From: Podarcis vaucheri
Taxonomy: Eukaryota
Strand: one strand, 5' to 3'
DNA length: 64,000 nt
Assembly (NCBI GenBank): GCA_965113315.1
Contig: OZ220364.1
The translations under genes and the position numbers were made by a program. The notes under the pieces are model-generated. The model was not told the origin of the DNA. It saw only the letters and a list, made by a program, of their open reading frames with translations, and searched no databases. Below are positions 1,922-61,508 of the stretch, one piece after another. Within the stretch, counting starts at the first letter, position 1. Every line of letters starts with the position of its first letter.

Positions 1922-2569
1922 GCTTGTTTTGTCCCAGAACATATTTTTAGCGCTTAGCCCTGAATCATGATAATAAGTGAGTTCTTCTGAGTAGGAGCAA
2001 AGTCTTTTCCTCACTACTAAGTAAATGCAGACAGCACTAATCTGAGGCAGAGGTTATCACTCGCAGGTAGGTGTGAACGGAGCACCTTTTTGTATATGCA
2101 CTTGAGAACCTCTCTCTCCTTCTGACCAACATTCCTACCAGCAGAGGACAAGGATAGTTCCTTATGCTGAATGACTCAATTGTTTTCTTTGTTTTCTGGG
2201 TTGCATTAGCTCCTTCCGTGCCTTTGAAAAAGAGAATGGTGTTGATCTTCAGCTAGTCAGGCTCAGAGGATAAGTGGCAATTTTAAAAATGCTAATTTTT
2301 AGAAGAGCATGCTATAAAATAATTATTTTATTTCAGAGTTTGTAAGCTGCTCTACATTTAGAGGGTACTTATGTAAAAAAAAAAAAATAGTAACAGCATA
2401 GAAGGTAATGGTTAGGCTAGCATCCCTCTTCCAAATATGCTAGGTTTTTATTTGCAGGGACTGTTCTACATGGGAAGAGGAAAGGAAAGTTAATAGAAGG
2501 AAAGGCGGGTGGGAGAGAAAGAGAAAGAAAGAGGGAAGGAAGGGGGGAAGAGAAGTGGAAAGGAGGGAG

Positions 2570-2945
2570 ACCGAGGCGGGGGAGAAGCGTCTGGAGAGTT
2601 GCTCCGGAGTCTGGGGGGCCGCGGGGGTGGGCGCGCGTCCCAGGAGGCGGAGGCCAGCCCGGGCTGGGAGCCGCGCCGCGGCTCGGGGGCGGAAGGCGGA
2701 CCGCGGCTCCTAGGATGTGGAAAGGGGACGGCGGCGCAGGGGGAGGAGACCCGCACGGCTAGGGCAGCGCGCAGGGGGAGGGGAGCGGGCCGGAGGCGGG
2801 CGAGGGGGGCCGCGATCCTGCGCGCCGCGAACATGGCCTCCTTCCCCGCGGGCCCCGCCGAGCCCCCCGGCCGGGGAGAACGGCGTGCCCCCGCCGCCGG
2901 AGGAGGGCAGAGGCAGGAGGAGGAGGACGAAGGCGCTGCCCGTTG
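2570..2945. promoter_or_regulatory. CpG island; probable promoter or first exon of an unidentified gene, possibly transcribed leftwards
   Basis: Very GC- and CpG-rich block in CpG-depleted surroundings; minus-strand GAGGCCATG at 2834 and candidate donor GCC|GTGCGG after 2757. Confidence 0.6.
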
Positions 2946-4412
2946 AAATCAGACAGTGGGAAAATAACAGGAGAGGGAGAAACTAGGGGAGGGGACAGGA
3001 GGGGAGGGAAGACAAGACAAGACCATGGGCCACTGTGGCCTTTTCGTACAACTGGGGAGGACCACCGGGGAGATTCAAATCTCAGACCATTAAGCTTTCT
3101 TTGGGTCAGCCATTATCATTCAGTCTAACTGCCTCGCAGGCCTGTGGTGAGGAGGGGGAAAATGGCCACCTTGGTATGTCACTTTGAGTTTGTTGGAGGA
3201 ATTGTAGAATATAAATGTAGACAGTAAGCAAATAAAAAAGACTGCACTTGGGAATGACGATTAAGATAAACCAAATCCACAGACAAATACAAAAACTACA
3301 ACCAGGAAGGAATAATAAAGTGCCCTTAGTGAGGATAAGGTGCCATTAATATCGTAAAGTCATAATATATCCAGATGGAGAGACTGGTTTGGCACTAATT
3401 GAAGAGCAGTTTGACATAAGTCATAAAACACAGTCCGTTTCTTCTAAATGTTCCCACGCCACCCTTTCCTTCTCTGATGGGCTAATGAGCTGTCAGCTGA
3501 GCCAAGACTGCTAAGCCTCACAATTTCTCCTGCCATTTCACTTTCAAAGATCTGGCAAATTATTTTCGGTCGCTGTCATGCAGAATTCTTGCTGATGTTG
3601 TAAAAGAGCCAGTCTGCGGCATTTTAGCAACAGTGTCTTCTGGCCCTAGTGGAGTCATGAAAATGTGGAAGTAGGGGAACCTCCTCTTCTCTTGTATTTA
3701 TTTATTGTCCTGACACCCCACACTTCTTCCAAGGAGCCCAGGGATGCCTGCATCGGTGTCGGAGCTGCCCCTCAAGCAGACACAGGGTGGGATCCAGGAC
3801 TCCAAACCAGCAGATCCTGCCATTGCTCAGATCCTGCTATTGCTCAGGGCAGACCTAGAAGCCCATAGTCCAATCTTGGGGCACCTGTGGCCTTCCAGAT
3901 GCCAAGATAACCAATGAGCAGTGATGGTTGGAGTTGCCGTCCACCTGGAAGGGCTGCAAAGAGATCCTGATTCTAGCCCCAACATTTCCTGATAATGGAG
4001 TCCTATGATGAGCCAGTCAAAGGGGCCTTACCTAGAACTAGCATCTAACTGAAGACAGGAGCTCTTTTATAGGGTGGTCCTGGAGAACCCGAGCTCTGCT
4101 TCTCTGGCAGTGGTCCCTGGATCCCCTGGGGAAATAAAAAAGTATTTTTACTTTTCTTCTAGAGCAGCTGAGCATGCTGCAAAAGGCTGTGCTGGTGAGA
4201 TCCTAGCCAGCCATCATCTTAATTTACCACCAGGCATCTCTGAGTATAAATTAGCATATGCAAATATGTATCACGGGCCCTGGGTCCTTTAAGTACCTAG
4301 GAACACTCCTGCCTGCCTGATTGCATTTTAAAAGCAATCATGCTCCTGGTAGTGGAAACACACTGGAAGATGTACAGGGGCTGTGCCTGAAAAGGCTCCC
4401 TCTCTTATGGAC

Positions 4413-13130: not shown

Positions 13131-13744
13131 GAGAATAAAGATCTACATCAGGAACATCAGGAAAAGGCCACTATAGGTGTGCTATTGTTGGGGAGTCTGC
13201 AGTTCTATCCTCCAAGGAGTGCACCACAGCGGTTGATGCCACTGTGGCAGCAGCAGCGGGCAATGCATTTTTTGGAGGCCAGGTCTGCTGCCTGTGGATC
13301 CTTGCCTCATGGGTGGGCGAGCCCTGTGTTCATTCCAAAAGAAGTTCTGCTACGTTTAATGTGACTTAATCTCAGTAAGGTTGTGACGGGTGTGTGTGTG
13401 GTTAGGATTGCAGTCTTACAGTGGTTTGAGATAAACAGAGAAGGGCAAAGCCACCACCACAAGTGGTGACCAGGCTGATGCACTTTGGATCTTGCTGAGA
13501 TGCCATCTCACTTCCTCCTGATATAGCTCCAAACTGTGGAAGGAGTCAAGAGGCGTGGAGTTAGCCAACCCTTTTGTTGCATTTTGCCACATCCACATGA
13601 ATGTCGGCCACCACTTGGGGTCATCAGAATCCACCAGTCCCAACACAGCCCCCCCCATCTGCTTCAGACGTCCAGCGATCTTTGAGGGAGGTTCCAAGGC
13701 AGCGTGAGAGGAGTTGGAAATGGCAACTCTCCAGTGGGTGGTTC

Positions 13745-14640
13745 CCGGCCTGGGCCCGTCTCGGGCTGCTCTTCCTCGCTTCGCGTGGGCCGTCGGGGCG
13801 GATTCCTCTCGCTGGGTGCTTGGCTGGGCGGCGGCGCCCTGCGCGAGGTTCCCTCCCTTCCCCAAGCCAGCTCAAGGGAATGGGCAGGGAGGCGGGAGCG
13901 CCGGGCGCCTGGGGAGGGACGGGCCCGGCACTGGAGGAGGGCGCCACTTGGACCGGCCGACACCGCCGCCGGCGCCGGAGAAGCCAGCAAGGGCCGCTGC
14001 CTCCTAGCGCAGGTGGCCACAAGGAAGCCGGCTCAGGTGCTTCCGGGCGGCCGGGGCAGCCAGCGAGAGCCTACAAACTCCAGGCAAGCAGCTGCGGGGA
14101 ACCGTCGGTGAGTGTGCGCGTCTTTACGCAGGCCGGGACGTCGGTTTTAGGGAGAGGCGGGATCGACCCATAAAGGGACCGAAGCGTGTCCCATTCACTT
14201 CCTCGAAAGTGTGGCTGCGGAGGGGGACTATAGATCCGGGCCAGAGCCGGCGTGTTTACCTGGAAGGATCCCCACATGGCTCCTCGTGGAACTTCCTAGG
14301 CAGCGCGCTTACGGCGGGCGGCCCACCCTGACTTTGCCGCTAGAGGTATTGCCCCCCCCACCTTGGGAGCAGGAAAGCGAGCATGTAGCCTTACCTCGGC
14401 CCGGCCCGTTCCCAGAATGTGGATGAGGTCCCGACGAGGTGATGCCCGAGCCTAGACCCCCGACAGCAACGGGAGCCTGGCACGCGCACCGACGGTGCCT
14501 GGAGATGCTGTGCATTTATGGCTACCCTGTGAGCGCGCGTTTTGCCCTCGGGTAAACTGTGGGGGCAAGATTAGCAGGCGGTGGGGTCTCCCCTTTGTCC
14601 GATGGAGTGGGAAAGTGCGGAGGGGGCGCTAGCGGGATCT
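13745..14640 (+). promoter_or_regulatory. LRRC8E: CpG-island promoter and non-coding exon 1 of LRRC8E; candidate donor after 14107
   Basis: CpG island about 6.5 kb upstream of the first coding exon; strong donor TCG|GTGAGT at 14107/14108; several ETS-like GGAA/TTCC motifs. Assignment to LRRC8E is an inference. Confidence 0.65.
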
Positions 14641-20900: not shown

Positions 20901-21038
20901 ATGATCCCGGTGGCCGAATTCAAGCAGTTCACAGACCAGCAGCCTGCTTTCAAGGTTCTCAAGCCATGGTGGGATGTGTTGGCCGAGTACATCACCATAG
21001 CCATGCTGATGATAGGAGTTTTTGGCTGCACTTTGCAG
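20901..21038 (+). CDS. LRRC8E: LRRC8E coding exon 1 (aa 1-46), volume-regulated anion channel subunit
   Basis: [46 protein letters not shown] matches the LRRC8E N-terminus; acceptor TTTTGGCAG ending 20895, donor CAG|GTGAGT; 138 nt, phase 0. Confidence 0.95.
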
Positions 21039-22219
21039 GTGAGTGCGTATGGGGGGAGCCCACGCAGTGCCTAGATGCCGCCATGGTGTCATAGAATCAG
21101 AGGATTGTAGAGTTGGAAAGGACCCTCGCAATGCAGGCGTCGCAGCTAGAGCATCCGTGAAAGATGGCCGTCCAACGTCTGCTTGAAAACCTCCAAGGAA
21201 GGAGAATTGGAATCATTGGAATCTTGGGGTGATGTTCCACTGCCCGTGGAAGAAGAGGCTCTAAATGTTTGGGGGCAGTCTGGACAAGGGTGGAACTGAC
21301 CCTAGCACAGAAATGGTCAACTTCTACAGCCTGGGGGGTTGGATTCTCTGCAGCCCACCACTTGTAAGGGGTGGCGGCCTAGCACTGTGCAGCCTCAGTA
21401 ACTTAGGCAGGGAGGCTCTGTTCTCCAAACGTTGAAGACCGACTTCTCTCCTACATGGCAGAGATGAGAGATTGAGTATTGAGTTTACTGTATTCATGCA
21501 GCCTTAGTACAGAGAAGAAGGTATGGGAGCCACAACTTTTAAGATTCTATCCCATGTTACAGAAAGGGCATGAAGTATTAGGTGATATATACCAAAGCAG
21601 GCCTGGGAAGGACCTCTGTGCCATGACTTCACCTTCTCTTGCCAATGCTTTATCATAAGACTCCTCAGATCCAAAGAAGCCTACAGAGCGTTAGATCCTT
21701 GGGAAGGAAAGATAAGACATGTCTCATATAACCCCTCATTCTGTAATCAGTATGGAAAACGCAGCCCTATAGCTGACACAGCATAGAAAATGCATGCAGA
21801 CAAGTTATTAGCAGATTTATACAGGGGCAGATTTCCCCTTGGTCCCTTTAGTATTAAGACTAGATTATCAGTTCATTTAAATTAGCTCCATTTTGACTAC
21901 ACATGAAGCAGTATTAGATATTAGACTTTGTCATTTCAGACAACAGTTGGGGGAGGATCCTTTTTTAATAACACGTAGCACAAAACTCCTTAAAAGTGAA
22001 ACCAGCACATCAGAAAGAGCTGTTCTAGACCAGCCCACTCCTTGCTATGCTAGTTTTCTACCTGCAGAGACTTTTTAAAAAACATATGAAGAGGTACAGT
22101 CCATTCAGCCACTTCAAGGCTTTCCTTGTTCATCCCCACCTGATATAAACTGTTGCGTTCTACCACCAGCCTGTTTTCTATCATGTTCCTCTCTTCTCTT
22201 TCCTAACCTGATGTGACAG

Positions 22220-24472
22220 GTGACACAAGATAAGATTATCTGCCTTCCCAACCATGTGCCTGATGGCACAACCTTCACTGGTGCATCTTGTGAAGATTTC
22301 ACGAAGAAGAGAGCCAATGCCTCTGAGCCAATAGGACCCTCTGCCAACCAGCGAATGAATGGATTGAAGAACAACCTAGACCTCCAACAGTACAGCTACA
22401 TCAATCAGATGTGCTATGAGACGGCCCTCCATTGGTATGCCAAATACTTCCCATACCTCGTGGTTATCCACACCCTCATCTTCATGGCGTGCACCTCGTT
22501 CTGGTTCAAGTTTCCTGGGACCAGTTCCAAGATTGAGCATTTTATCTCCATCCTGAGCAAGTGCTTTGACTCGCCCTGGACTACTCGAGCCATCTCTGAA
22601 GTCTCTGGGGATAACCAGGAAAATGCATTCTTAGAGAAGGGGTACCGGAGGAGGAAAAGCAGTGCTCCCAGCGAGACAGCTGAACTCAACCCCCCCGGGG
22701 GATCGGTGTCAGAAAAGAAGGTTTCAGAGTCCTCCCCGGTTAGCCTATTGGACAAGAAGGAAGGGGAGCAGGCCAAGGCTCTCTTTGAAAAGGTGAAGAA
22801 GTTCCGGCTCCACGTTGAAAAAGGAGACATCCTTTACACCATGTATATCCGCCAAACCGTTCTCAAAGTCTTCAAGTTTCTCGTCATCATTGCCTACAAT
22901 GCAGCCTTGGTTTCCAATATCAGCTTCATTGTGCCATGCACTGTCAGGATGGAGGACATGACAGGCTATGACCATTTCTGCTGCAATCACACCAAAGCCC
23001 ACCTCTTCTCCAAACTGGCCATCTGCTACATCTGCTTCCTTGGCATATATGGCATGACGTGTCTCTACACCCTCTACTGGCTGTTTCACCGGCCACTGAA
23101 AGAGTACTCCTTTCAATTTGCACGCAACGAGACAGGCATCAGCGACATTCCTGACGTCAAGAACGACTTTGCTTTCATGCTCCACCTCATTGACCAGTAT
23201 GATTCCCTCTACTCCAAGCGCTTTGCTGTCTTCCTTTCCGAGGTCAGCGAGTTCAGACTCAAGCAGATCAACCTCAGTCATGAGTGGACGGTGGACAAAC
23301 TGCGGCAGAAGCTGCAAACCAACGCGCAAGGCCGGCTGGAGCTCCATCTCTTCATGCTACCAGGGTTGCCTGACACCACCTTTGAGCTGAATGAGCTGCA
23401 GTCCCTGAAGCTGGAGCTCCTCAAAGATGTGACATTCCCACCCTCAGTGACTCAGCTGGCCCAGCTCCAGGAGCTCACACTGATCAACTCTCCCGTCAAG
23501 CTCTCTTTCACCTCTCTTATGTTCTTCCGTGAGCAGCTGAAGGTAATGACTGTGAAGTTTGATGACATCAAAGATATACCACTATGGACCTACAACTTGA
23601 GAGGCTTGGAAGAGCTGCACATCTCAGGACTTTTCAGTCCAGAGATGGGCCGGGCAGGGACTCTGGAGAACCTGCGTGAGCTGAGGAATCTGAAGACCTT
23701 GACTCTGCACAGCAACATCTCAAAACTGCCACCTAGCGTGTCTGACGTTGCCGCCCATCTGCAGAAGCTCAGGATCTACAATGATGGGACTAAGCTAGTG
23801 ACCCTCAACAACCTCAAGAAGCTCTTCTCTGTGCAAGAAGTGGAGCTGATAAACTGCAACCTGGAACGCATCCCCCATGCTGTCTTCAGCCTGGTGAACA
23901 TGCAGCAGTTGGACCTCAAAGATAACCAGCTGCAGTCCATTGCAGAGATCATCAGCTTCCAGCATTGCCGCAAGCTGGTGTGCCTCAAACTTTGGCACAA
24001 CCACATTTCCAGCATTCCTGAACACTTCCGCAAGCTCAAGACCTTAGAGCAGCTTGACCTCAGCCATAACCGCATTGAGGTCCTCCCTTCCCAACTATTC
24101 CAGTGTTCTAGGCTGCACACTTTGGACCTTTCCTATAACAATATCCAGGTCATTCCCCCTGGGATGGGAGTCCTGCAGAGCCTTCAGCATTTTGCCATTT
24201 CTCACAACTCCTTAGAGGCACTGCCAAATGAAATCTTCTTCTGCAAGCAACTCCGGGTTCTCAAAGTGGGACACAACAAACTGCATCGCCTCTCTGACCG
24301 CGTGAGTTGGCTGCCTTCGCTCTCCACGCTAGACTTGAGAGGAAATCCCCTTCAGGCCCTTCCCTTGGAGATTGGCCAGTGCCCAGTGCTCAAACGGAAT
24401 GGCCTGCTGGTGGAGAGCAGTCTTTATGAGGCGTTGCCTATGGAAATTAGGGAGAAAATGGAGGATCAGTGA
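22220..24472 (+). CDS. LRRC8E: LRRC8E coding exon 2 (aa 47-796): TM2-4 and complete LRR domain
   Basis: Acceptor GACAG|GTGACA; LRRC8 motifs [48 protein letters not shown]; many LxxLxLxxNxL repeats; joined CDS 2391 nt = 796 aa; lies upstream of MAP2K7 as in mammals. Confidence 0.95.
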
Positions 24473-24639
24473 TGAGGAGAATGATAAAGGGGACAGGGGT
24501 GTCCTCTCATGTGTTGGCCCCTTTGAGTCCAAGCATGGACTGAATGGGGGAGCTGGCTGGACTTCTATCTTCGGCTGGAACCAAGGAGGGAATGGGAACT
24601 TTTCACCCTAATAAGGGAGCAAAGGAATTGAAAAGACAC

Positions 24640-24645
24640 AATAAA
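24640..24645 (+). other. Candidate proximal polyadenylation signal for LRRC8E (alternative ATTAAA at 25864-25869)
   Basis: AATAAA about 170 nt after the stop codon; usage unknown. Confidence 0.3.
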
Positions 24646-25937
24646 GAGCAAAAGTAGAAAGTGACTTTTAAAAAAATAACCCTGTTTTCTGAATGGATAA
24701 GACCACAGGAATTGTCCATTGGGGCGGGGGCGGAAGCACAGCTACACCTGACCAAATCATCATTATAGCTATTTTTGTACATGTGTTGTGTACTGGTGTA
24801 TCTTTGTGAAATGCCCTGGGGCTTTGCGGGATTGTTCTGTTCAAAACTCCTATCTCTGCTCCCTTCTCCTCATCAATGTGTTCAGCTCGCAGGCCTGTAG
24901 CTTACAAAGCCCATCTTTTGAGCTTATTAGAAAACTTTCTTTTCTGCAGTTTCAAATTCCTATATATCATGGGGTGGGGAATCAGGGACAGGCAACTCTT
25001 CAACAGGGAAATAGCCTAATTCCTTTTACTTCTTTGTTCAAAGAAGGGCTGTGTTCCTTAGCACTGGACAGACAGAGCACAATGCCTTCACATACCACTG
25101 ACTGTAAGGAATCTTCTTATGTTTGTGTGTGTCTGTGTACATATGCATGTATACCTTAATCCCTTCTGGTTTCTGTTTTTGTCACATTCTAATCAGGGTG
25201 ACATTAGTTTATCAGTTCTTCTTGAGTGCTAGAGCTGAACTTTCTGGCTGTTCAGATCTCTTCCCTCTTCAGGCTAGGAGAGCCTAGCACCACAGATCCT
25301 CTTCAGAACTCACTTCCTCTCTCATTACCTTCTCACGTAATTTCAGTGAGCACCACACATGGAAGAGAGGAGGAATCCTGCACTGTGAAAACCCATCCTC
25401 ACTACCACTTATGAAAAGCCACCTTATTTCCCCCTGGAGCCTTTAATCAGTTCTCCACATATTCCAATCCCAGCATAGGTTGAAGTCGCTTTCTCACTCC
25501 TCCTATAAGCACAGACATTCTTTCTACCCATTTTCTGTAATCAAGGCAGGTAAGTGCCTTTTGCTTAGCACATGAAGGGAGATGTGGGACTTCCCAGGTG
25601 GCTTGGGCTTGCTTCTGTTTCATCCCTTTGGGTCTCAGCTCTCTTACGGCCTCTTGAGACGCAAGCAGACTCTTCTGGGCCTGCCGTAACCTGGCCTTCT
25701 CTTCCTGCTTTACCTGATTGCAGAGCACTTTGGGGCATGTAAAAGCCATTGGAAAAGGGACCCTGCTTCCTCAATGGCAAAGCAACTCAAAGCTGGTCTC
25801 AGAATCCTACCTGTTGGCAGCAGACTCCTTCATATCCAGTTAAAGTATGTTTAGAAAAAGTTTATTAAAAATAAGAGAAAGCTGAAATGCATGGCATTAA
25901 GAAACAATAGTGCACACTTTTAGCAGATGCTATGCTA

Positions 25938-25940
<3 letters not shown>

Positions 25941-25981
<41 letters not shown>

Positions 25982-25999
25982 GGGTGTGTGTGTGTGTGT
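25941..25999. repeat. Compound (CT)n/(GT)n microsatellite
   Basis: Direct tandem repeats. Confidence 0.9.
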
Positions 26000-26822
26000 A
26001 ATGTTCCTAACCCCTACTTGTCTTTGCTCATAGAGTTGCTTTGTCCTTAGAAACCTCACAATCTGGTCCGAAATAGTTTAGTTCATATGTCTTCTGCCAG
26101 ATTCAATACACAGAGGTGGTTGGATAATGATTTCACCTTCCATTTGTTGAGAACTAGTTGCTTGAGGGAACTTTCACAATAAGGGAGAGGTTGCAGTAGT
26201 CCCTGGTAATTATTGTTTTGGTTAATGAAGTCCTAAATTCAGAGCCTGCTGAACAACGAAGGCTGAAGTCCTGTGCACACATAACGGGAATAAATCCCAC
26301 TTGCACTTGAGTCAGCATTCATAAGACCAAATAGAAAGGTGGCAAGGAGACAGCCATATCTATTTGCACTCTTACCAGCAGTCCTTGGGACTCAGCTGCT
26401 GAGCCTTGCTTTTGACAGGAGCAAGCTGTGCCCTACACTGGGGCAACCAGGCAACCAGCCAGCCAATGCTTCATACCTGGGAATGGCACAATAGGCCTCA
26501 TTCCTCATGCCCTGGTGGTTGAAGGGGGAGGAGGAGATGGGTGGGAATGTGAAGCAATGGGTGGGAAGGAGAACCTGCTATGTGACTCACTGAGAGAAAC
26601 CAACCAACATAGCTGCATTTTGGGAGTGCTTCTGAGGCCATAAAATTGGAAGAGGCTGTTCTGCAGCAAGGTTGTAAAACAGGCCTGTTGTGCAGGAACA
26701 TGCTTTAGTAGCATGAATAACACTGATGGTGTTAACACTGTGGTGGGTGGCCTGGTGTTTACATGAGCATGCACCAAAGTAATTATTTGGCAGTTCACAC
26801 AGTTCCTGGCAAAATGCATTTA

Positions 26823-27040
26823 CAGTGGTACCTCAGGTTAAGAACTTAATTCGTTTCAGAGGTCCGTTCTTAACCTGAAACTGTTCTTAACCTGAAGCAC
26901 CACTTTAGCTAATGGGGCTTCCCGCTGCCGCCGTGCCACGATTTCTGTTCTCAACCTGAAGCAAAGTTCTTAACTCAAGGTACTATTTCTGGGGTAGCGG
27001 AGTCTGTAACCTGAAGCGTCTTTAACCTGAGGTACCACTG
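26823..27040. mobile_element. Tc1/mariner MITE (same family as 9443-9668)
   Basis: TA TSD; TIR CAGTGGTACCTCAGGTTAA ... TTAACCTGAGGTACCACTG. Confidence 0.9.
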
Positions 27041-27337
27041 TACTTAAAAGACTTAAATAACTTTGGGGGGGGGGGGGTAGAAGAAACGCCAGCAGAATTA
27101 AAACAGATGTAAAACATTGTAAAAGGCCAGAGTCAATGTAAGAGATCTTCAGTTAATTGGGTAGGAGGCGTAACTTAGTGGTAAAGCACATGCAAAAGGC
27201 CACCTCAGTCTCCAGGTGAAGGATAACAGGGGATAGCTAATATTCACCTACTTGAGCCGCTGCTCAGAGTAAACATTACTGAGCTAGATGGACCAAGAGC
27301 CCTACCTGGTATAAGGTAGAATCCTATGTTCCCATGT

Positions 27338-27700
27338 AAAAGGTAAAGGTAAAGGTACCCCTGCCCGAACGGGCCAGTCTTGACAGACTGTGGGGTTTGT
27401 GCGCCCATCTCACATTTATTGGCCGGGGGCCAGCGCTGTCCGGGGACACTTCCGGGTCACGTGGCCAGCGTGACATCGCTGCTCTGGCGAGCCAGAGCCG
27501 CACACGGAACGCCGTTTACCTTCCCGCTGGTAAGCGGTACCTATTTACCTACTTGCACCCGGGGGAGCTTTCGAACTGCTAGGTGGGCAGGCGCTGGGAC
27601 CGAACAGCGGGAGTGCACCCCGCCGCGGGGATTCGAACCGCCGACCTTTCGATCGGCAAGCCCTAGGCGTTGAGGCTTTAGCCCACAGCGCCACCCGCGT
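27338..27700 (-). mobile_element. Sauria SINE, different and CpG-rich subfamily
   Basis: (AAAGGT)n tail, GGATTCGAACC (B box on minus), many intact CpGs. Confidence 0.9.
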
Positions 27701-28802
27701 GTACTTGGTACTAAAAGGATATAAAGTGCCAGCTGGGCTTCCTGGAGAGGACATTCCATAAATGTGGTGCCACCACTGAAAAGTCCCTTTCTCTGATCTC
27801 CCCCCCCCCGTCTAACCTAAATAGGTTGAAACACTTAGAGATGGGCCTCGGAAGATGACCTATGCATTTGAGCAGAGACCATGAGGCTGCAATCCTAACC
27901 CCAGCACCTGGGAGTAAGCCAGGCAAGCGAGAAGCACAGTTCAAGGCCACATTCCAAGGAGACACCTGAGGGCCAATGAAGGGTGTGGCCTCAGGAGGAG
28001 GCGTGGCCTAGGGAGAGGTGTGAAGGGCCTGCATCTCTCCCTCCCTGCCCAGGTCTGAAGTTCCCCAGGGAGGTTCAACTGGTGCCTTCATTATACACCT
28101 TTAGATGCCAAGCAAAAATGTTCCTCTTCAACCAGACCTTGGGCTGATTGACATCTTATACCCCTTTAAAAATTGTGTGTGGGAGGGGGTGAGCGGGGTT
28201 ATTGGTCTGTGGTTTTTTTTGTTCTTGTTTTTATCATGTGCTTTTATATTGTATTTTTAGGTTGTGAACTGCCCTGAGATATGTGGGCAAAGGACAGTAT
28301 ACAAATGTAATAAATTATCGTCTAAGCAGTACACCACTTTAGGTTTCAGGCAAGGAGTTTGGGAAAACACTGCACCGCACCACAGAGGAGTCTGTCAGAA
28401 ATAGTTGGGATTGTCACTATGTACATCCACTGCCTTTGATATGGGCAGTGACTGAAAGGGTCCAGACATGATGGATTAGATGTCGGGCTGGATCATTTGC
28501 TCCAGTAGCTACTTATGCCAGTCTTGGATACCCGACAGATTTATATTCTCTCTTCGATCAGAGGCCTTCAACTGGTGGATTGGGGACTCACTACCAGGTT
28601 GCCTGATCTAAGGTGGGTCACAACAGCAGCACTACCACCATACAAATGTATGGAATGAATGAATGAATGAATGAATGAATAGGTCCCCAAATACTTGTTT
28701 GGATTACATAGGGGTCCTGTGTATGAAACCGCAGAATATTGTTGCAGTTTAAACATTTATGTGCTATGTCACTAGGTTCATTGGCTGTGTGTTGGAGCCT
28801 AA

Positions 28803-28815
28803 TGCCACCTAGTGG
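28803..28815 (-). promoter_or_regulatory. Candidate CTCF site between the two LRRC8 genes
   Basis: TGCCACCTAGTGG reads CCACTAGGTGGCA on minus, a close match to the CTCF core consensus. Confidence 0.45.
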
Positions 28816-30099
28816 TTAAAATTATTCAAGCACCTCAAAGAGCAATCATAAAATGCACTTTTATTTGTGGTGGGTGTTCAAACTCTACTAGTCAAGGCTT
28901 TTCAGGTATAAGGCAAATAGCCGATTCTTCAAACCCCACTGAAGACTCAGCCTACGCACCACTGTGATTTGCTCTCCTATGTGATCAATTAGCTGCAGAC
29001 TTCCTTTTGGAAGGGAAGGTTATACATTTTTAAAGGGAATAAATAAATAGGTGGCCACTTTCTATTCCTAATATGGAATTAAGCCTCCTTACCAGTCTTC
29101 ACAGCATACAGATTTCTGGGATCACAACCAACCACATTGTTCGGCTGAGTCAGGTCTTACAAGACTGTATGTGGATAGAGTGGGTGATTATGTTCCTGTA
29201 TTGCACAAGTGAAAAATAATGCAACTTTAAGGAGAGATTTTGCAAAACTGAATCAAGGAATACAGTACATAAAACCTTGACCAAAATATATTGCATCTGT
29301 GCCAACTCTGACCACACATCAGAAAGGGAGGGACCTACCAGCTGATACATGCAAAAGACATGAGTCAGTCAGGTTTCAGGTCTTGTTATGGGACCTAGAG
29401 AAGCTGAGGGAGCTGAGAAAGAACAGGTGGGTGGTCCAAAACAGGGACAGTAGCTTAGGGTGCAGGCATCACAACAGAGAAGAGTCCCTCAGACTGGGGC
29501 TAAGGCTTTATTGGGCCTAGTGGACAGGGATTGGCCTTTGAGGGTCACATGACTGAATGCTCAGGTAGACCAGTATTACATGTCGTTGAAGCAGAGTTCA
29601 GCCTGCCAAACATGCAGTTAAAGCAGAGTCCTGGTGCTGCAGAGATTAAGACACCAGTCTGCTGGGAGTCCTGGTTTGTGCACACACAGTGGGTGCCATG
29701 TAACAGGCCTCTGCCTCCAGGGAGCTTGCAGTCTACAAGAGCCAGTATGCTGTGATGGCTATCATGTTGGTATTATACCAGGATCTTCAAACTGACCTGT
29801 ATCAACTTGCGTGCCCTTCCCTTTCTCCTGTGTGGCTAGAATTTCCATGTGCGTCACATTCTTCAAAGTTTCAATTAGTCCTTGATTCATTCTGAAAATC
29901 TTTTAGCCTCGTTATTTCAAAGTTGTGTAATGCAGGAACAGAATTCTTGCTCAAGCCACTCCACCCATCCCTGATGACCTTATGGCTGTTATTATCAGCC
30001 TTCCCTACCTCAAAGGGTTGTTATGAAGAGCAAATGAAGGCAGGGAACTATGTTTTGTGGGTGAGGAGTTCTCTAGTGGTTTAGTGGTCTTAGCTTAGC

Positions 30100-30162
30100 C
30101 CCTTCCTTCCTTCCTTCCTTCCTTCCTTCCTTCCTTCCTTCCTTCCTTCCTTCCTTCCTTCC
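30100..30162. repeat. (CTTC)n microsatellite
   Basis: Direct tandem repeat. Confidence 0.95.
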
Positions 30163-32919
30163 CTCCCCCCTCTCTCACATTTTTCCACTGTGAGTTACAG
30201 AAGACAGAATAAGAAGTGTGAGTGTGGGAGTTTGTCACAACTGGTAGCAATCCCTTTGCAAGCAAATGAATTCCGAGCAACGAGTTTTGCTTCCCTCCTC
30301 CTTCCTCCAGTCCTTTCGTCCTGCCTGGAGCTGCCATGGAAACGGAATAAAGCCTCTTGCACTGAGTACAGTGTGGTGTGCAGGCTTAACGCACAAGCAA
30401 AGGAGAGGGTCTGGGAGAGAAAGATCCTTGCAGACGGGAGAGAAAAGAGCAGAGGTTGTGCATGAAGAGTTCTAGAACCGCCTGCAGGTGAGGAATTGAT
30501 GCCAAATGGGATAAGGAAGTCAGAGAGGGGCAGAAGGTTGGCATGTAACCCTTCCAGTGTTATAACCACAGCCAAAAAAATGCTTGTGTCTATGCATGCT
30601 AAAACCACCCTTCTAAATGATATTTAAGGACAGCCTGCTGCAGATCTAGCAACAGTGAAGTGGTTCTGTTTCAAGGCTAAGTGTCTGGGAGTGCATGTTT
30701 TGTTGGTGGATGTTTTAGGGTGCCCCCAAACTGTTGATATTTTGTGGGAGGAATACACACACATACTGGAACTTTAGGTTTGCACAATTAAAGTGGATTG
30801 CAACCCTCTGTCATCCTAGTGTCACAAATCCACTTTAAATAAACAACATTGGACTTTTCGCAGTTTGAAAAGTGATGGGGAAATGCATTCAAAAGTGTGG
30901 GATGAGTGAATTATTATTATTATTATTTATTAAATTTGTATAACACCCTATTCTTGCAGGTCTAAGGGTGGTTCAATGACACGTAAACACCCTGCATGCA
31001 AATAAGGGTAAATGTAAGATAAATACTCTTTGTCATATAACTACCCCATAAACAAATCAGAACAAACGCTCAATGAAGATCAGACATTGACCAACTATTG
31101 TGTAAGCTTATCAGGATCATAGCTGTCAACGTTTTCCTTTTTTTAAGGGAAATTCCCTTATTCCGAATAGCAAGAAAAGGGAAAAGTTGACAGCTATGAT
31201 CAGGATGAATGTTGAATAAACAGGTTGTCTGGAGGAACCCCGAGTATCGTGAACAAACAACAACATTTTCAGCAGCAACAGCCAAAAGGAATTGGAATCT
31301 AAAGCAACAGCTGCTTTCAGAGACACCAGGATTAGATCCTCTCACAAACAACTTTTAGCACAAATGTGCAAATCACTTATTGGTATCTCTGCTTTTCAAC
31401 TTCAGGTAACAGTAATTCTTCCATCTACTCAGAGTAAGATATCATTAAGCCTAGGCCATTTCCCACTTGCCTGATCCACTGTAGGACGTGGAAAACAAAG
31501 ATGGGGAAATGGAAAGTTGCCTAAACGCCACAGAGTAAACCACCCTCTGTACAGCCTTAAGGCATTTTTCCATCTTTCCGCTTTCCACAAAGCGAAGTCT
31601 AGTTATAGGATCTAAGGAGAAACTGTGAGTAAGGAAGTGTTGTTGCTATTTATGACTTGGAGAGCATCTTGGCAGATGGCTATATGAATTATAGTCTTAG
31701 AATTTTTTAAAAAAACACATATTGAATCTTTTTCAAGCCACTCCATCTCATTGCAATTATTCTTATTATTCAATTAGGTATTTATATCCTGCTCTTCTGC
31801 GCCAAAAGCATAATCAAGACAGCATGCAGGATAAAATAATAACAAAAACAAACTAAAATGCAATGTTAAAAACAATAACAAGGAAGCCACAATAGCAGTA
31901 AAAAAAGCAGGGTTATTTTTTTAAAAAAAGTGTCCATAGGTCAGGGGTGGGAAACCTGTGGCTCTCCAGATGTTGTTGCAGACTCCTCAGTGGCAAGGGT
32001 TGATAGGAGCTTGAGGACTCATCTACATTAGTACGGAAAAGGTGTTTTATATGTGTTATAACACTGTGACACCAGATAGCACTGTGGAATTCCGTTTTTA
32101 GCCAACATGCTTTCCCACTATGTTGTTTACAACATGTTTTCCTGAAACACTTTTTTAATGTATCTAGATCCAGCCTAAGACCAGTGACAACTGGAGGGCT
32201 ACAAGTCCTTCCCTGCCCTAGATTATTTATTTTTTTTACATTTGGAATGGCAGTTGCCAACTCAGCATCCACAGATGCCCTGCTGCCCACATTGGTGCCC
32301 CTGGGTGGGGGAGGACAAATTATGAGCTTTCATCTTTTTCTTTTTTTAAAAAAAATAAGGCTCTAGCCTTCCAGGAAAGTTATGAAGCAAAACATACAGG
32401 TACCCTTCTAAGTGATTTTTGCAAGATGGGGGCTGCTGCCTGTCAATGCTTTTAACCAGCGGATGAAGCTGTGATTGATAAATGTGTTGTTTAGACACCA
32501 GGCATTAGGAATCCCTGGGATCCTAAAGAGCTACTGTTTCCCCCTGTCCTTTAGCGCACTTTTCCTGTTTCTGTCTGTCTTATTTATAGTCTTTGGATTC
32601 TCTTTAGTTTGCCCTTCTTTTCCCCGTAGCAGCCAGGATGCATCTTCCCTAAGGTCTCTTAGTGTTTACTAGGGCTTATTCCCAGGTAAGTGAGTGCAGG
32701 ATGGCAGCCTAGACTTTGGTTTATGGTTGACACTCAGGAAACAGGAGGTTCTTGTGTCTTTGGCAGCTGTATGGCAGGCAGAAACTCAACAGGTTAAGGC
32801 AAGCCTTTCCTAGTATGGAAAGCCTCGCCATAACTGTTCTGTCTCTAAGTTTGGGTTATGCCTGACCACTTTGTTCATCAATGACGGCGCTATCAATAGT
32901 GCCACACAATGCCCGCTGT

Positions 32920-33130
32920 ACCAGGAGAGGAGCATTCAGTGTGGCAGCATCAAAACGATGGAACTCCCTCCCAATGTGCATTATGCAAGCGCCTTCTGTT
33001 TTATAATTTCAAACACATTTCTGTTTAACCAAGCCTTCCTTGAAGTGTGACCAGTTCTGTATTTTAGTCATTTATCGCTGAACAGTTTTAATGTTTAACT
33101 TTTTATATTGTTCTGAGTAACTTTGTATTG
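32920..33130 (+). mobile_element. L2-type LINE 3' fragment
   Basis: AGAGCATTCAGTGTGGCAGCA...TGGAACTCCCTCCC (RAFSVAA..WNSLP-like). Confidence 0.55.
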
Positions 33131-33144
33131 CTCACAGTTTAGGG

Positions 33145-33175
<31 letters not shown>

Positions 33176-33266
33176 GCACTAGCTAAATGTGCTAAACATG
33201 CAGACTTTGTTTCAGTGCAATAGCCAAGGATGTTACTCAATTCCCACTTACCATTTGCTTCTAGTG

Positions 33267-34430
33267 ATGTTTAACCTGACAGAAGTGACCTTCCTCGGTG
33301 ACGCCCACGCTCGGTTCCAGACTCTAAAGCCTTGGTGGGATGTCCTGATGGACTACTTGGTAGTAGCGATGCTGATGGTCTCTCTCCTCTCAGGTACTCT
33401 GCTGATTTCTGTTGACCATATGACCTGCTTGCCTCTGAATTACAAGCTAAATGAGACCACAGCAGCTATGCTCAAGCCTGGAGCTATGAACAGTGCCACC
33501 AGTGAAGAGTTTTCTGCTGAGAACAGTGGACGCCCAATCAACCTTGACTACCAGCAGTACCTGTACATAAACCATGTCTGCTATCAGAATGCTTTGCCTT
33601 GGTTCTCCAAGTATTTTCCTTACCTAGCACTTGTCAACTCACTGATTTTAATAGCAAGCAGCAACTTCTGGTTCAGGTACCCTAAGACGTCCTCAAAGAT
33701 CGAACACTTCTTATCCATCCTCATGAAATGCTTCGAGTCACCTTGGACCATCAAGGCCGTCTCTGAAATGGTCTACCAGAATTTCCTAGACCTACCCCAA
33801 ACCACGGATACTAGAGGGTGTCAAGAACAATTTATTTCCCCTTCATCCTCTCCTATCCTTGACTGGAAGGAGAGGGAGCAGGGCCGGGCACTCTTTGAGA
33901 AGATCTGCAGATTCAGGGCACATGCTGAAGGTGCCAGCTTGATTTATATGGTCTACATGGGACAATCAATCTTCAGAGTCGCCAAGATCCTAACTGTGCT
34001 GGGCTACACCTCCAACTGCATAGGAGCCATCTCCTTTGAACATGTTTGCTGGCTGGACACAGAGAACCTCACCGGCTACTCTGTTTTCCTCTGTAACCAC
34101 AGCTTGGCTTTCATTCTGCAGAAGTTGATGGTGACCTACCTGTTCCTGGTATTCCTCTATGGGGTGGTGGGGGCTTACCCACTGTTGTGGCTGCTGCGGC
34201 AGCCGCTGCAGAAGTATTCCTTTAAGCAAATGCGAGAAGACAGTCACTTTCTTGGCATCCCAGATGTCTACAACGACTTTGCTTTCCTCCTGCACATGGC
34301 TGATCAGTGCGACCAGCTATACTCCTGGCGGTTTGCCATCTTCCTCTCAGCCATGAGCAAGAGCTCTTTGCTGGATGTGGGCCTTGAACACAAGGCAAGT
34401 ATTGAAGGGCTGCAGCTGCATGTGCATTGA
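33267..34430 (+). CDS. LRRC8D-like paralogue, 387 aa: four-TM pannexin-like domain with no LRR domain (functional truncated gene or young pseudogene)
   Basis: Acceptor TTTGCTTCTAG ending 33264, then TG-ATG; MFNLTEV...[15 protein letters not shown] (Cys54), NLDYQQY, ALPWFSKYFPYLAL, SSNFWFRYPKT, CFESPWT, AISFEHVC, DFAFLLHM are LRRC8D-type motifs; no stop or frameshift until TGA at 34428-34430. Confidence 0.85.
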   Translation: MFNLTEVTFLGDAHARFQTLKPWWDVLMDYLVVAMLMVSLLSGTLLISVDHMTCLPLNYKLNETTAAMLKPGAMNSATSEEFSAENSGRPINLDYQQYLYINHVCYQNALPWFSKYFPYLALVNSLILIASSNFWFRYPKTSSKIEHFLSILMKCFESPWTIKAVSEMVYQNFLDLPQTTDTRGCQEQFISPSSSPILDWKEREQGRALFEKICRFRAHAEGASLIYMVYMGQSIFRVAKILTVLGYTSNCIGAISFEHVCWLDTENLTGYSVFLCNHSLAFILQKLMVTYLFLVFLYGVVGAYPLLWLLRQPLQKYSFKQMREDSHFLGIPDVYNDFAFLLHMADQCDQLYSWRFAIFLSAMSKSSLLDVGLEHKASIEGLQLHVH

Positions 34431-34640
34431 GACTCAAGGGCATCAGAGAATTAAGGCTTCACAAGGCTGCCAGGCTACCTAGGGCCCTCTTCTGTGAAAT
34501 GGAAGTCCTGAAGCTTGCAAACAGTCCCAGACTAAAGCACCCAGAAAAATAGGTATACTAACCTTTCTTAATCCTCATTGGTCAAGATGGGCCCCACTGA
34601 CCTAGGAAGGCCCACAGTATTCCACATCACATTTCCTGAC
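34431..34640 (+). pseudogene. Frameshifted remnant of the first LRRs of the LRRC8D-like gene
   Basis: Shifted frame 34448-34552 reads ELRLHKAARLPRALFCEMEVLKLANSPRLKHPEK* (compare LRRC8D ELHLFMLSGVPDAVFDLTDLDVLKLELIPEAKIPAK); further shifted pieces GILTFLN and VKMGPT...VFHITFPD (compare SQMTNLQ and AKVEQT...CLHVKFTD). Confidence 0.7.
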
Positions 34641-35030: not shown

Positions 35031-35036
35031 AATAAA
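35031..35036 (+). other. Candidate polyadenylation signal of the LRRC8D-like gene
   Basis: AATAAA about 600 nt downstream of the stop, preceded by a T-rich tract. Confidence 0.35.
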
Positions 35037-38089: not shown

Positions 38090-38930
38090 CCGACCCCGTC
38101 ATGACTCCCGGACATGCTCCCTAGTCCCCATCAAAACTGAGTGGAGATGCACGAATAGGGAACGTCCGAAATATCATTGACGGCCGGGCGGTGCGGATAC
38201 TGAGCTCGGGCAGCGCTTTGGTGCCCTCGCGCATGCGCGAGCAAGGAAAAGCCGCGAGGCAAAACAAGCACAGCGGGCAAAAGCGGAGCCGTGTCTTTGC
38301 GGTGGGCGGAGGAGGAGGACGATAATATGGTGGCCTGGTTGGTCCTTTCGGCGCGTGCGCACTGCGGTGTTTGTGTATTCTGGCTGCGCGGTGGCGGCAG
38401 CGTCGGCGGCTCCGGGGGAGGGGGGGAAGATGGCGGCGTCCTCGCTGGAGCAGAAACTGTCCCGCTTGGAGGCCAAGCTGAAGCAGGAGAACAGGGAGGC
38501 CCGGAGGCGCATCGACCTCAACTTGGACATCAGTCCGGCCCGGACTCGGCCTAGTAAGGGAGGCTTTGAGGGGGGAAACGGGGGCGGCGGCGGCGGCAGG
38601 GGAGGCTCCGCGGCAGGGCCCCCCCCTGCTTGGGCGACTGACACGGGCCCGCCTGGGCAGGAGCCCCGGGGCCGGAGGGATGCGGGGCGGGGATGGGAAG
38701 AGCCGAGCTGCCCCGGAGAGGGGCCGGTAGAGAAAGGTCCTCCCGGAGAAGCGAAGGGGTCGGGAAACCCGGGGCGGGGAAACAAGGGGGCTCTTGTTTA
38801 CCACGGAGCCTGGGGGAGGCGGAGGCCCAAGGCACACCGGGGCCGGGAGAAAGAAGACCGAGGGGAAAGGTAAAGAATCCAGTGGGGAAGGGACTTGGAG
38901 GAAGGCGTGGGCGTGGGGGGCGGGGAAGAG
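38090..38930 (+). promoter_or_regulatory. MAP2K7: MAP2K7 CpG-island promoter with NRF1 palindrome and YY1-like motif
   Basis: TCGCGCATGCGCGA at 38227-38240; AAGATGGCGGC overlapping the start codon; CpG-rich. Confidence 0.8.
38430..38553 (+). CDS. MAP2K7: MAP2K7 (MKK7) exon 1
   Basis: MAASSLEQKLSRLEAKLKQENREARRRIDLNLDISPARTRP; donor CTA|GTAAGG; 124 nt, phase 1. Confidence 0.96.
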
Positions 38931-61328: not shown

Positions 61329-61508
61329 ATTGTCAAAGCACTCTACTACCTGAAAGAGAAGCATGGTGTCATCCATAGAGATGTGAAGCCTTCAAATATC
61401 TTGTTGGATGAGAGGGGGCAAATCAAATTGTGTGACTTCGGGATCAGTGGGAGGCTGGTGGACTCGAAAGCCAAAACCCGGAGCGCTGGTTGCGCAGCAT
61501 ATATGGCG
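61329..61508 (+). CDS. MAP2K7: MAP2K7 exon 8 (HRD, DFG, SKAKT activation loop)
   Basis: [60 protein letters not shown]; 180 nt. Confidence 0.97.

Follow-up and report, generated by a model that had tools for sequence, protein, structure and literature searches.

A stretch of 64,000 nucleotides from Podarcis vaucheri (assembly GCA_965113315.1, contig OZ220364.1), called the window from here on, carries on its + strand LRRC8E, then a single-exon open reading frame (ORF) similar to LRRC8D, then MAP2K7. What is the middle gene? We call it gene 2, LRRC8E gene 1, and the relatives of gene 2 D-like. An earlier note on this DNA had taken gene 2 for a D-type LRRC8 gene. The pore domain and the relation to LRRC8D bear this out. 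However, the note overlooked that the product has 387 amino acids instead of about 800, and that the leucine-rich repeat (LRR) domain is absent. Our analysis places gene 2 in an ancient clade next to LRRC8D, present from sharks to squamates, whose squamate members end after the pore domain. As a whole explanation, we lean towards an ancient duplicate that became an LRR-less partner of LRRC8A with altered gating. Work on volume-regulated anion channels (VRAC) deals with five subunits, LRRC8A to LRRC8E. An ancient sixth one changes the family history, with C-D and E-D-like as mirror blocks.

Structure of gene 2 and its missing repeat domain

As the earlier note described, gene 2 has one coding exon, an acceptor just 5' of the start codon (AG ends at 33264, ATG at 33267) and D-type motifs. 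Human LRRC8D is also a single coding exon. The features of gene 2 are as follows.

33267..34430, + strand: gene 2, single-exon ORF of 387 amino acids, LRRC8D-sister paralogue with the pore domain only (ATG at 33267, stop at 34428-34430)
33236..33264, + strand: splice acceptor of gene 2, ending 2 nucleotides 5' of the ATG (from the sequence)
32630..32685, + strand: candidate non-coding upstream exon of gene 2, with a polypyrimidine-AG acceptor and a CAG/GTAAGT donor (from the sequence only)
34433..34549, + strand: frame-shifted relic of the start of an LRR domain (first repeat), directly 3' of the gene 2 stop (tblastn, local score)
35031..35036, + strand: first AATAAA 3' of gene 2, candidate polyadenylation signal (pattern scan)

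In Pfam, the ORF matches only the LRRC8-specific pannexin-like transmembrane domain PF12534 (E=1.4e-108) and no LRR family. Gene 1 and a turtle orthologue of gene 2 match many LRR families besides the pore domain. From the stop of gene 2 to MAP2K7, no LRR exon was found except the short relic. This search used tblastn with the C-terminal 430 amino acids of full-length D-like proteins, and a hidden Markov model (HMM) built from 32 D-like LRR domains.

The relic comprises about 37 codons, with 38-52% identity to full-length orthologues across 29-41 amino acids (tblastn). Its local score in a position-restricted test was 55.0, a value that none of 782 control windows reached (maximum 29.9). The frame-shifted relic after the stop indicates that gene 2 formerly had an LRR domain, since lost. 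One result weighs against this. In the whole-domain HMM search the relic scored -1.0 bits, within the background (controls up to 0.5), so that the position-restricted test alone sets it apart. A sequencing error as the source of the stop was ruled out, because the proteins of Podarcis raffonei and Rhineura stop at the same position.

The P. raffonei protein (P0121), named 'LRRC8D-like', has the same length as gene 2 and 97% identity to it. So the gene was already in databases under an automated name, as the earlier note had suspected. In the library of 50% clusters, the best match, at 78%, comes from a squamate, and the second best stands at 55%. Among 26 matching solved sequences, four LRRC8D entries come first (393-398 bits), against 333-341 bits for LRRC8A (one construct 287) and 315-316 for LRRC8C. 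The AlphaFold2 model shows four long helices, and its fold matches LRRC8 chains, with LRRC8D first. Its quality is moderate (predicted local distance difference test 63, predicted template modelling score 0.53), which counts against it. Hydropathy at a threshold of 1.6 gave only the first and fourth transmembrane helices. The four helices are thus proposed from homology and the model. The GC content at third codon positions is 0.63 versus 0.42-0.43 in the flanks, a pattern weakly consistent with coding DNA. Lacking the LRR domain, gene 2 is classed here as an LRR-less derivative and not as a canonical LRRC8/VRAC subunit.

Origin of gene 2 beside LRRC8E

The search among longer proteins gave the best 120 of 881 matches, the search at similar length all 45, and the search with gene 1 the best 120 of 1,099. 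Among the 284 distinct proteins, the 240 with a source name were used. The other 44 are unnamed and were excluded throughout, together with unnamed 50%-cluster representatives. Four of these unnamed matches are short, show 70-76% identity and look squamate; LRRC8B may be among the rest. The names of the relatives rest on the shortened source names of the records.

By tree, or by best match to the clades of the tree, the gene 2 clade comprises 49 proteins among the matches listed. They come from 13 squamates, 10 turtles, 12 amphibians, lungfish, coelacanth, bichir, sturgeon, gar and 9 cartilaginous fish. None comes from a mammal, bird, crocodilian, tuatara or teleost among the matches listed. 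This taxonomic absence is only suggestive, because two of the searches show the best 120 matches. Teleosts probably have an orthologue, since the UniRef name of the coelacanth protein (P0023) starts with 'Si:ch211-106h11', a zebrafish clone name.

Four trees recover this clade. In the FastTree analysis of the transmembrane region (115 rows), gene 2 lies within a clade of 41 rows, from sharks to squamates (support 100), which is sister to LRRC8D (36 rows, 89). In the same tree, LRRC8E (22 rows, 99), with which gene 1 clusters, and LRRC8C (13 rows, 96) form a mirror pair of sister clades with equal span. It agrees with the earlier statement that LRRC8E is closest to LRRC8C. Three further trees contain the gene 2 clade: a quick mixture-model search on 50 rows (support 98), an LG+G4 tree of 27 rows with bootstraps (97/96) and a tree of 28 full-length rows (99/98). 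Each of the sharks Heptranchias, Heterodontus and Mustelus is represented by a copy in this clade and by another in the LRRC8D clade. A shark-specific duplication was rejected (p=7.5e-5, full-length tree). A single lamprey fragment is unplaced in the 115- and 50-row trees; the full-length tree gives it 86/55.

Alternatively, LRRC8D could have been retrocopied or translocated recently within squamates, or gene 2 could be the only LRRC8D of the genome. The single coding exon, the closest solved relative (LRRC8D) and the automated 'LRRC8D-like' names would fit. But the approximately unbiased (AU) test rules out a grouping of the short squamate proteins with squamate LRRC8D (p=1.2e-7, 27 rows), and the orthologues are linked to LRRC8E back to sharks. 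Moreover, a true LRRC8D of 859 amino acids (P0047) exists in the congener Podarcis muralis, with 49% identity to gene 2 over 367 core columns. Rhineura and Hemicordylus have both LRRC8D and a gene 2 orthologue, on different contigs. Such an origin is hardly credible. The earlier view of gene 2 as an ancient sixth member, and no recent local duplicate, holds.

For linkage we used a proxy: a pair of paralogues was counted as linked if their longest contigs are of equal size. It covers 33 species with at least two paralogues among the matches listed, and the tally is incomplete for E-C pairs. By this proxy, 15 of 16 species have E and D-like linked; the contigs concerned include 17-32 Mb chromosomes of one turtle and three sharks. 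C and D are linked in 8 of 11; the three misses are teleosts, with extra duplicates. No linkage was found between D-like and D (0/10 species), E and D (0/13) or D-like and C (0/4). A 'hypothetical protein' of Crotalus horridus (P0001, 1,209 amino acids) is a model that fuses LRRC8E to the short D-like ORF, which shows that the two are adjacent in a snake as well. A mirror fusion model, LRRC8C with LRRC8D, occurs in Caranx (P0002).

From the proxy linkage and the trees, we conclude with confidence that the C-D and E-D-like pairs come from an ancient block duplication, older than the split of sharks and bony vertebrates. The earlier note had gone further and proposed a whole-genome duplication. 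The block duplication stands, and a whole-genome event is probably its cause; we infer this from only two gene pairs, which are compatible with a segmental duplication too. Such a date is in line with the allotetraploidy of jawed vertebrates and the asymmetric retention of genes described in part of PMC7269912. In the supplements of two ohnologue papers, LRRC8 rows were not found.

Some points weigh against this picture. True LRRC8D forms one clade with support 89 in the 115-row tree and 83/93 in the full-length tree; it is unresolved in the 50- and 27-row trees. The trees are without LRRC8B, and two fish fragments represent LRRC8A. A long-branch warning applies at the turtle-squamate join in the 115-, 50- and 27-row trees. 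Finally, Rhinatrema is the lone species in which E and D-like differ by the linkage proxy.

The sequence of events was most likely the following. Two LRRC8 genes in tandem, one C-type and one D-type, would have been duplicated together, with the genome duplication of jawed vertebrates as the probable occasion. One block would have given LRRC8C-LRRC8D, and the other LRRC8E and the D-sister gene. The latter would have kept both halves in sharks, bichir, sturgeon, coelacanth, lungfish, amphibians and most turtles. The squamate lineage would have lost the LRR half and kept the pore half, on which purifying selection is seen at the protein level.

Some names in the records touch this history. 'LRRC8C' or 'LRRC8C-like' proteins of lungfish, bichir, shark and croaker (P0185, P0187, P0230, P0235, P0256, P0151) cluster with LRRC8E, so that LRRC8E reaches back to sharks. 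Sharks also carry a true LRRC8C, contrary to a figure legend in PMC11729881, which has LRRC8C absent outside bony vertebrates.

Selection on the short form and its proposed function

The LRR domain is absent in 13 of 13 named squamate D-like proteins. Together with gene 2, they end at 413-464 in LRRC8C numbering (ruler: pig LRRC8C); the Varanus and Lerista models are N-terminally incomplete. Outside squamates, 34 of 36 clade members have 701-857 amino acids. The exceptions are Caretta (459) and gar (487).

We considered the substitutions in 12 squamate sequences. Family-conserved columns are those with a conservation of 95% or more among 96 full-length LRRC8 proteins. Invariant columns make up 82 of 103 family-conserved versus 34 of 139 family-variable ones (odds ratio 12, p=5e-18). 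The four extracellular cysteines C54, C105, C261 and C276 are invariant in all 12 and align to cysteines in A, C, D and E. According to an excerpt of PMC12333906, four extracellular cysteines are conserved across all five LRRC8 subtypes. Frames are open in 14 squamate sequences, from geckos, skinks, cordylids, lacertids, amphisbaenians, iguanians, anguimorphs and snakes. When the gene 2 ORF was randomly substituted to 88.5, 79 and 70% identity (no indels), the frame stayed open in 30, 4 and 1 of 300 runs. Judged by these sequence patterns, the short form is likely to be a selected protein.

Other data pull the opposite way. The short form diverges faster, with a Podarcis-snake identity of 70% versus 83% for E and 96% for D, which is consistent with relaxed selection. 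Besides, protein databases show intact ORFs only, and dead squamate copies would be invisible.

The gene might be a slowly decaying pseudogene, heading for the loss seen in mammals and birds, with its open frame as a leftover. Half of the protein is gone and the relic has decayed. Divergence is faster than in E or D, and long amniote branches run throughout the clade. Three sea-turtle models appear damaged at the same boundary, and databases favour intact copies. However, the frames are open from geckos to snakes, neutral change would usually add stops, the substitutions spare family-conserved sites, and the degeneration is confined to the LRR part. A pseudogene is therefore quite improbable.

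The sea-turtle models (P0136, P0010, P0012) are cheloniid. The Caretta protein goes out of frame just past the pore domain (459 amino acids), the model from Eretmochelys carries the label 'LOW QUALITY PROTEIN', and that from Chelonia jumps from the boundary to the middle of the repeats. The D-like protein of Dermochelys looks whole. In cheloniid sea turtles, too, this LRR domain may be on its way out, by an independent loss.

The link between the pore and the lost domain has also changed. Strong squamate conservation ends near residue 395, and the sequence is relaxed beyond. At the position of LRRC8C L400, 6 of 14 squamates retain the leucine, against 36 of 36 non-squamates. Y380C is present in 14 of 14 squamates and K386W in 13 of 14, each in 0 of 36 non-squamates.

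What could such a protein do? Parts of PMC12333906 state that LRRC8A is obligatory, that native channels need LRRC8A and another subunit, and that homomers of LRRC8C or LRRC8D fail to reach the cell surface. Part of PMC13586329 states that the field has yet to explain how swelling acts through the LRR domains to open the pore, and describes that changes of LRRC8A L402 open the channel. In the truncation experiments excerpted from PMC11729881, the LRR-less human LRRC8C p.Leu400IlefsTer8 still joins LRRC8A and gives currents at isotonic conditions. The truncations t379 and t419 give very low currents; t419 with LRRC8A is low, yet it forms a homomer.

We propose that the short protein would fold as an LRRC8 pore domain and co-assemble with LRRC8A into VRAC, like other non-A subunits. 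By comparison with these subunits, it probably works as an LRRC8A partner. Its contribution would be a D-type pore wall and a looser link helix, with the cytoplasmic LRR domain missing. The LRR domains would control the resulting channel only in part: it would open at a lower threshold or show basal activity, and would pass chloride and organic osmolytes. We favour this direction because squamate conservation ends where the activating human allele ends. Even so, that the protein raises rather than dampens activity is a possibility that we hold with some doubt. Human LRRC8C cut at 400 is constitutive and cut at 419 is weak, so that the gating effect could go either way.

One finding does not fit a raised activity. 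Gene 2 stops at the position equivalent to LRRC8C residue 419 and retains the L400-equivalent leucine, matching the weak allele. For this reason, a dampening subunit is a close rival. It would join LRRC8A and give low-activity channels or poor surface delivery, tuning VRAC down where expressed. In the Podarcis protein, the ancestral sequence is recognisable up to the stop, as in the low-current t419. The ebouriffe LRR truncation of mouse LRRC8A lowers activity as well, according to part of PMC12182595; it also speaks against the gain that we favour. But the squamate ends vary from 413 to 464, and the helix past residue 395 is poorly conserved. Therefore, a t419-like tail is not what selection keeps. 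Furthermore, the t419 data concern a C-type, not a D-type, subunit. We regard dampening as rather unlikely.

A further alternative dispenses with LRRC8A. The protein could form a homomeric, pannexin-like large-pore or intracellular channel, a return to the LRR-less architecture that preceded LRRC8. The family arose by fusion of a pannexin with an LRR domain (as cited in an excerpt of PMC12182595), and gene 2 is pore domain only. LRR-less LRRC8C makes homomeric heptamers, as part of PMC11729881 describes, and structures of the isolated pore domain exist (6g8z). The failure of LRRC8C and LRRC8D homomers to get to the surface stands against it, and the present data give no sign of a new trafficking signal. 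This alternative seems improbable.

Taking the raised activity as correct, we can go one step further, only tentatively. Squamates since their early radiation would have had an LRR-less VRAC subunit, with channels open at rest or at a low threshold. It would be a fixed and tolerated counterpart of the human LRRC8C truncation behind a multisystem disease, and a partial return to the pannexin architecture.

In human LRRC8C, truncations a few residues apart act oppositely, as reported in part of PMC11729881; squamates offer a clade-wide natural truncation at the same boundary. With the full-length orthologues of turtles, amphibians and sharks as controls, and with the variable lizard ends, the role of the LRR domain in the gating of a non-A subunit becomes directly testable. 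If the reading is true, they make a natural pair with and without the domain.

Flanking genes and comparison with known systems

The neighbours of gene 2 in the window are listed below.

20901..21038, + strand: LRRC8E coding exon 1, codons 1-46 (translation, GT donor at 21039, orthology)
21039..22219, + strand: LRRC8E phase-0 GT-AG intron after codon 46 (AG acceptor ending at 22219; spliced product open)
22220..24472, + strand: LRRC8E coding exon 2, 2,253 bases, with the remaining pore domain, the full LRR domain and the stop (PF12534 and LRR families in Pfam)
13501..14500, no strand: CpG island, candidate promoter and first non-coding exon of LRRC8E (CpG scan, sequence)
38430..38553, + strand: MAP2K7 first coding exon inside a CpG island, downstream bound of the locus (translation, CpG island)
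61329..61505, + strand: MAP2K7 kinase exon (MKK7 match across all 59 residues; confirms the gene)

Two LRRC8 genes lie on the same strand, the first being LRRC8E with an intron after codon 46, as the earlier note had it. Coordinates, orthology and product agree. The spliced product has 796 amino acids, and its large exon shows 99% identity to a Podarcis lilfordi 'LRRC8E-like' protein and 90% to Rhineura LRRC8E. Human LRRC8E presumably adjoins MAP2K7, too. It likewise has 796 amino acids, according to part of PMC9573974. NCBI evidently misannotates the turtle LRRC8E P0179 (Platysternon), which it calls 'histone-lysine N-methyltransferase EHMT2'.

We take the exon at 38430-38553 to be the first of MAP2K7. 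The gene (38430-62370 in the window) has a long gap after exon 1, has its kinase exons grouped at about 59.3-62.4 kb, and continues beyond the window end.

Between LRRC8E and gene 2, there are repeat-like insertions at 27340-27700 and 26821-27050. One is similar to a squamate short interspersed nuclear element; the other has 25-base inverted arms, like a small DNA transposon. An inverted repeat at 31110-31206 (35-base arms, 86% complementary, 27-base spacing) lies about 2 kb 5' of gene 2. At the other end, a strong CpG island at 2501-3000 (GC 0.72) may mark a + strand first exon. After it, no further exons of a gene were recognised up to 13.5 kb.

Our literature search, which left the main family-evolution paper outside, found no description of a sixth LRRC8 paralogue or of an LRR-less squamate form. 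Abascal and Zardoya, in 2012, reportedly mention extra fish LRRC8 paralogues. The paralogue itself may therefore not be new in print. A zebrafish paper lists, in the part concerned, only lrrc8aa, ab, c, da and db (PMC6994961).

Four known systems are close to gene 2. The nearest named paralogue is LRRC8D, its sister group in the trees, with which it shares the D-type N-terminus and extracellular motifs. Unlike LRRC8D, gene 2 belongs to a clade separate since before the shark split, is linked to LRRC8E and not to LRRC8C, has no LRR domain in squamates and evolves much faster.

The automated 'LRRC8D-like' models in RefSeq and UniRef, such as P0121 of P. raffonei and P0023 of the coelacanth, are the same gene or its orthologues. 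However, these labels are unreviewed and mix true LRRC8D with the gene 2 clade. Two Heptranchias proteins that share one name fall in different clades of the 115-row tree. A sixth subunit matters for work on amphibians, reptiles and fish as models, in which the automated labels confuse the paralogues.

The human LRRC8C truncations p.Leu400IlefsTer8, t379 and t419 resemble gene 2, for they keep the pore domain and lose the LRR domain at the same boundary. But they are rare alleles of a C-type subunit, one a pathogenic gain of function and two weak (part of PMC11729881). Gene 2 is a D-type paralogue whose truncation a whole clade shares as a fixed trait, and substitutions specific to squamates lie next to the boundary.

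Finally, pannexins have a four-helix large-pore fold and no LRR domain, just as gene 2. Nevertheless, gene 2 descends from within LRRC8, as the trees and the LRR relic indicate, and its only Pfam match is to the LRRC8-specific domain.

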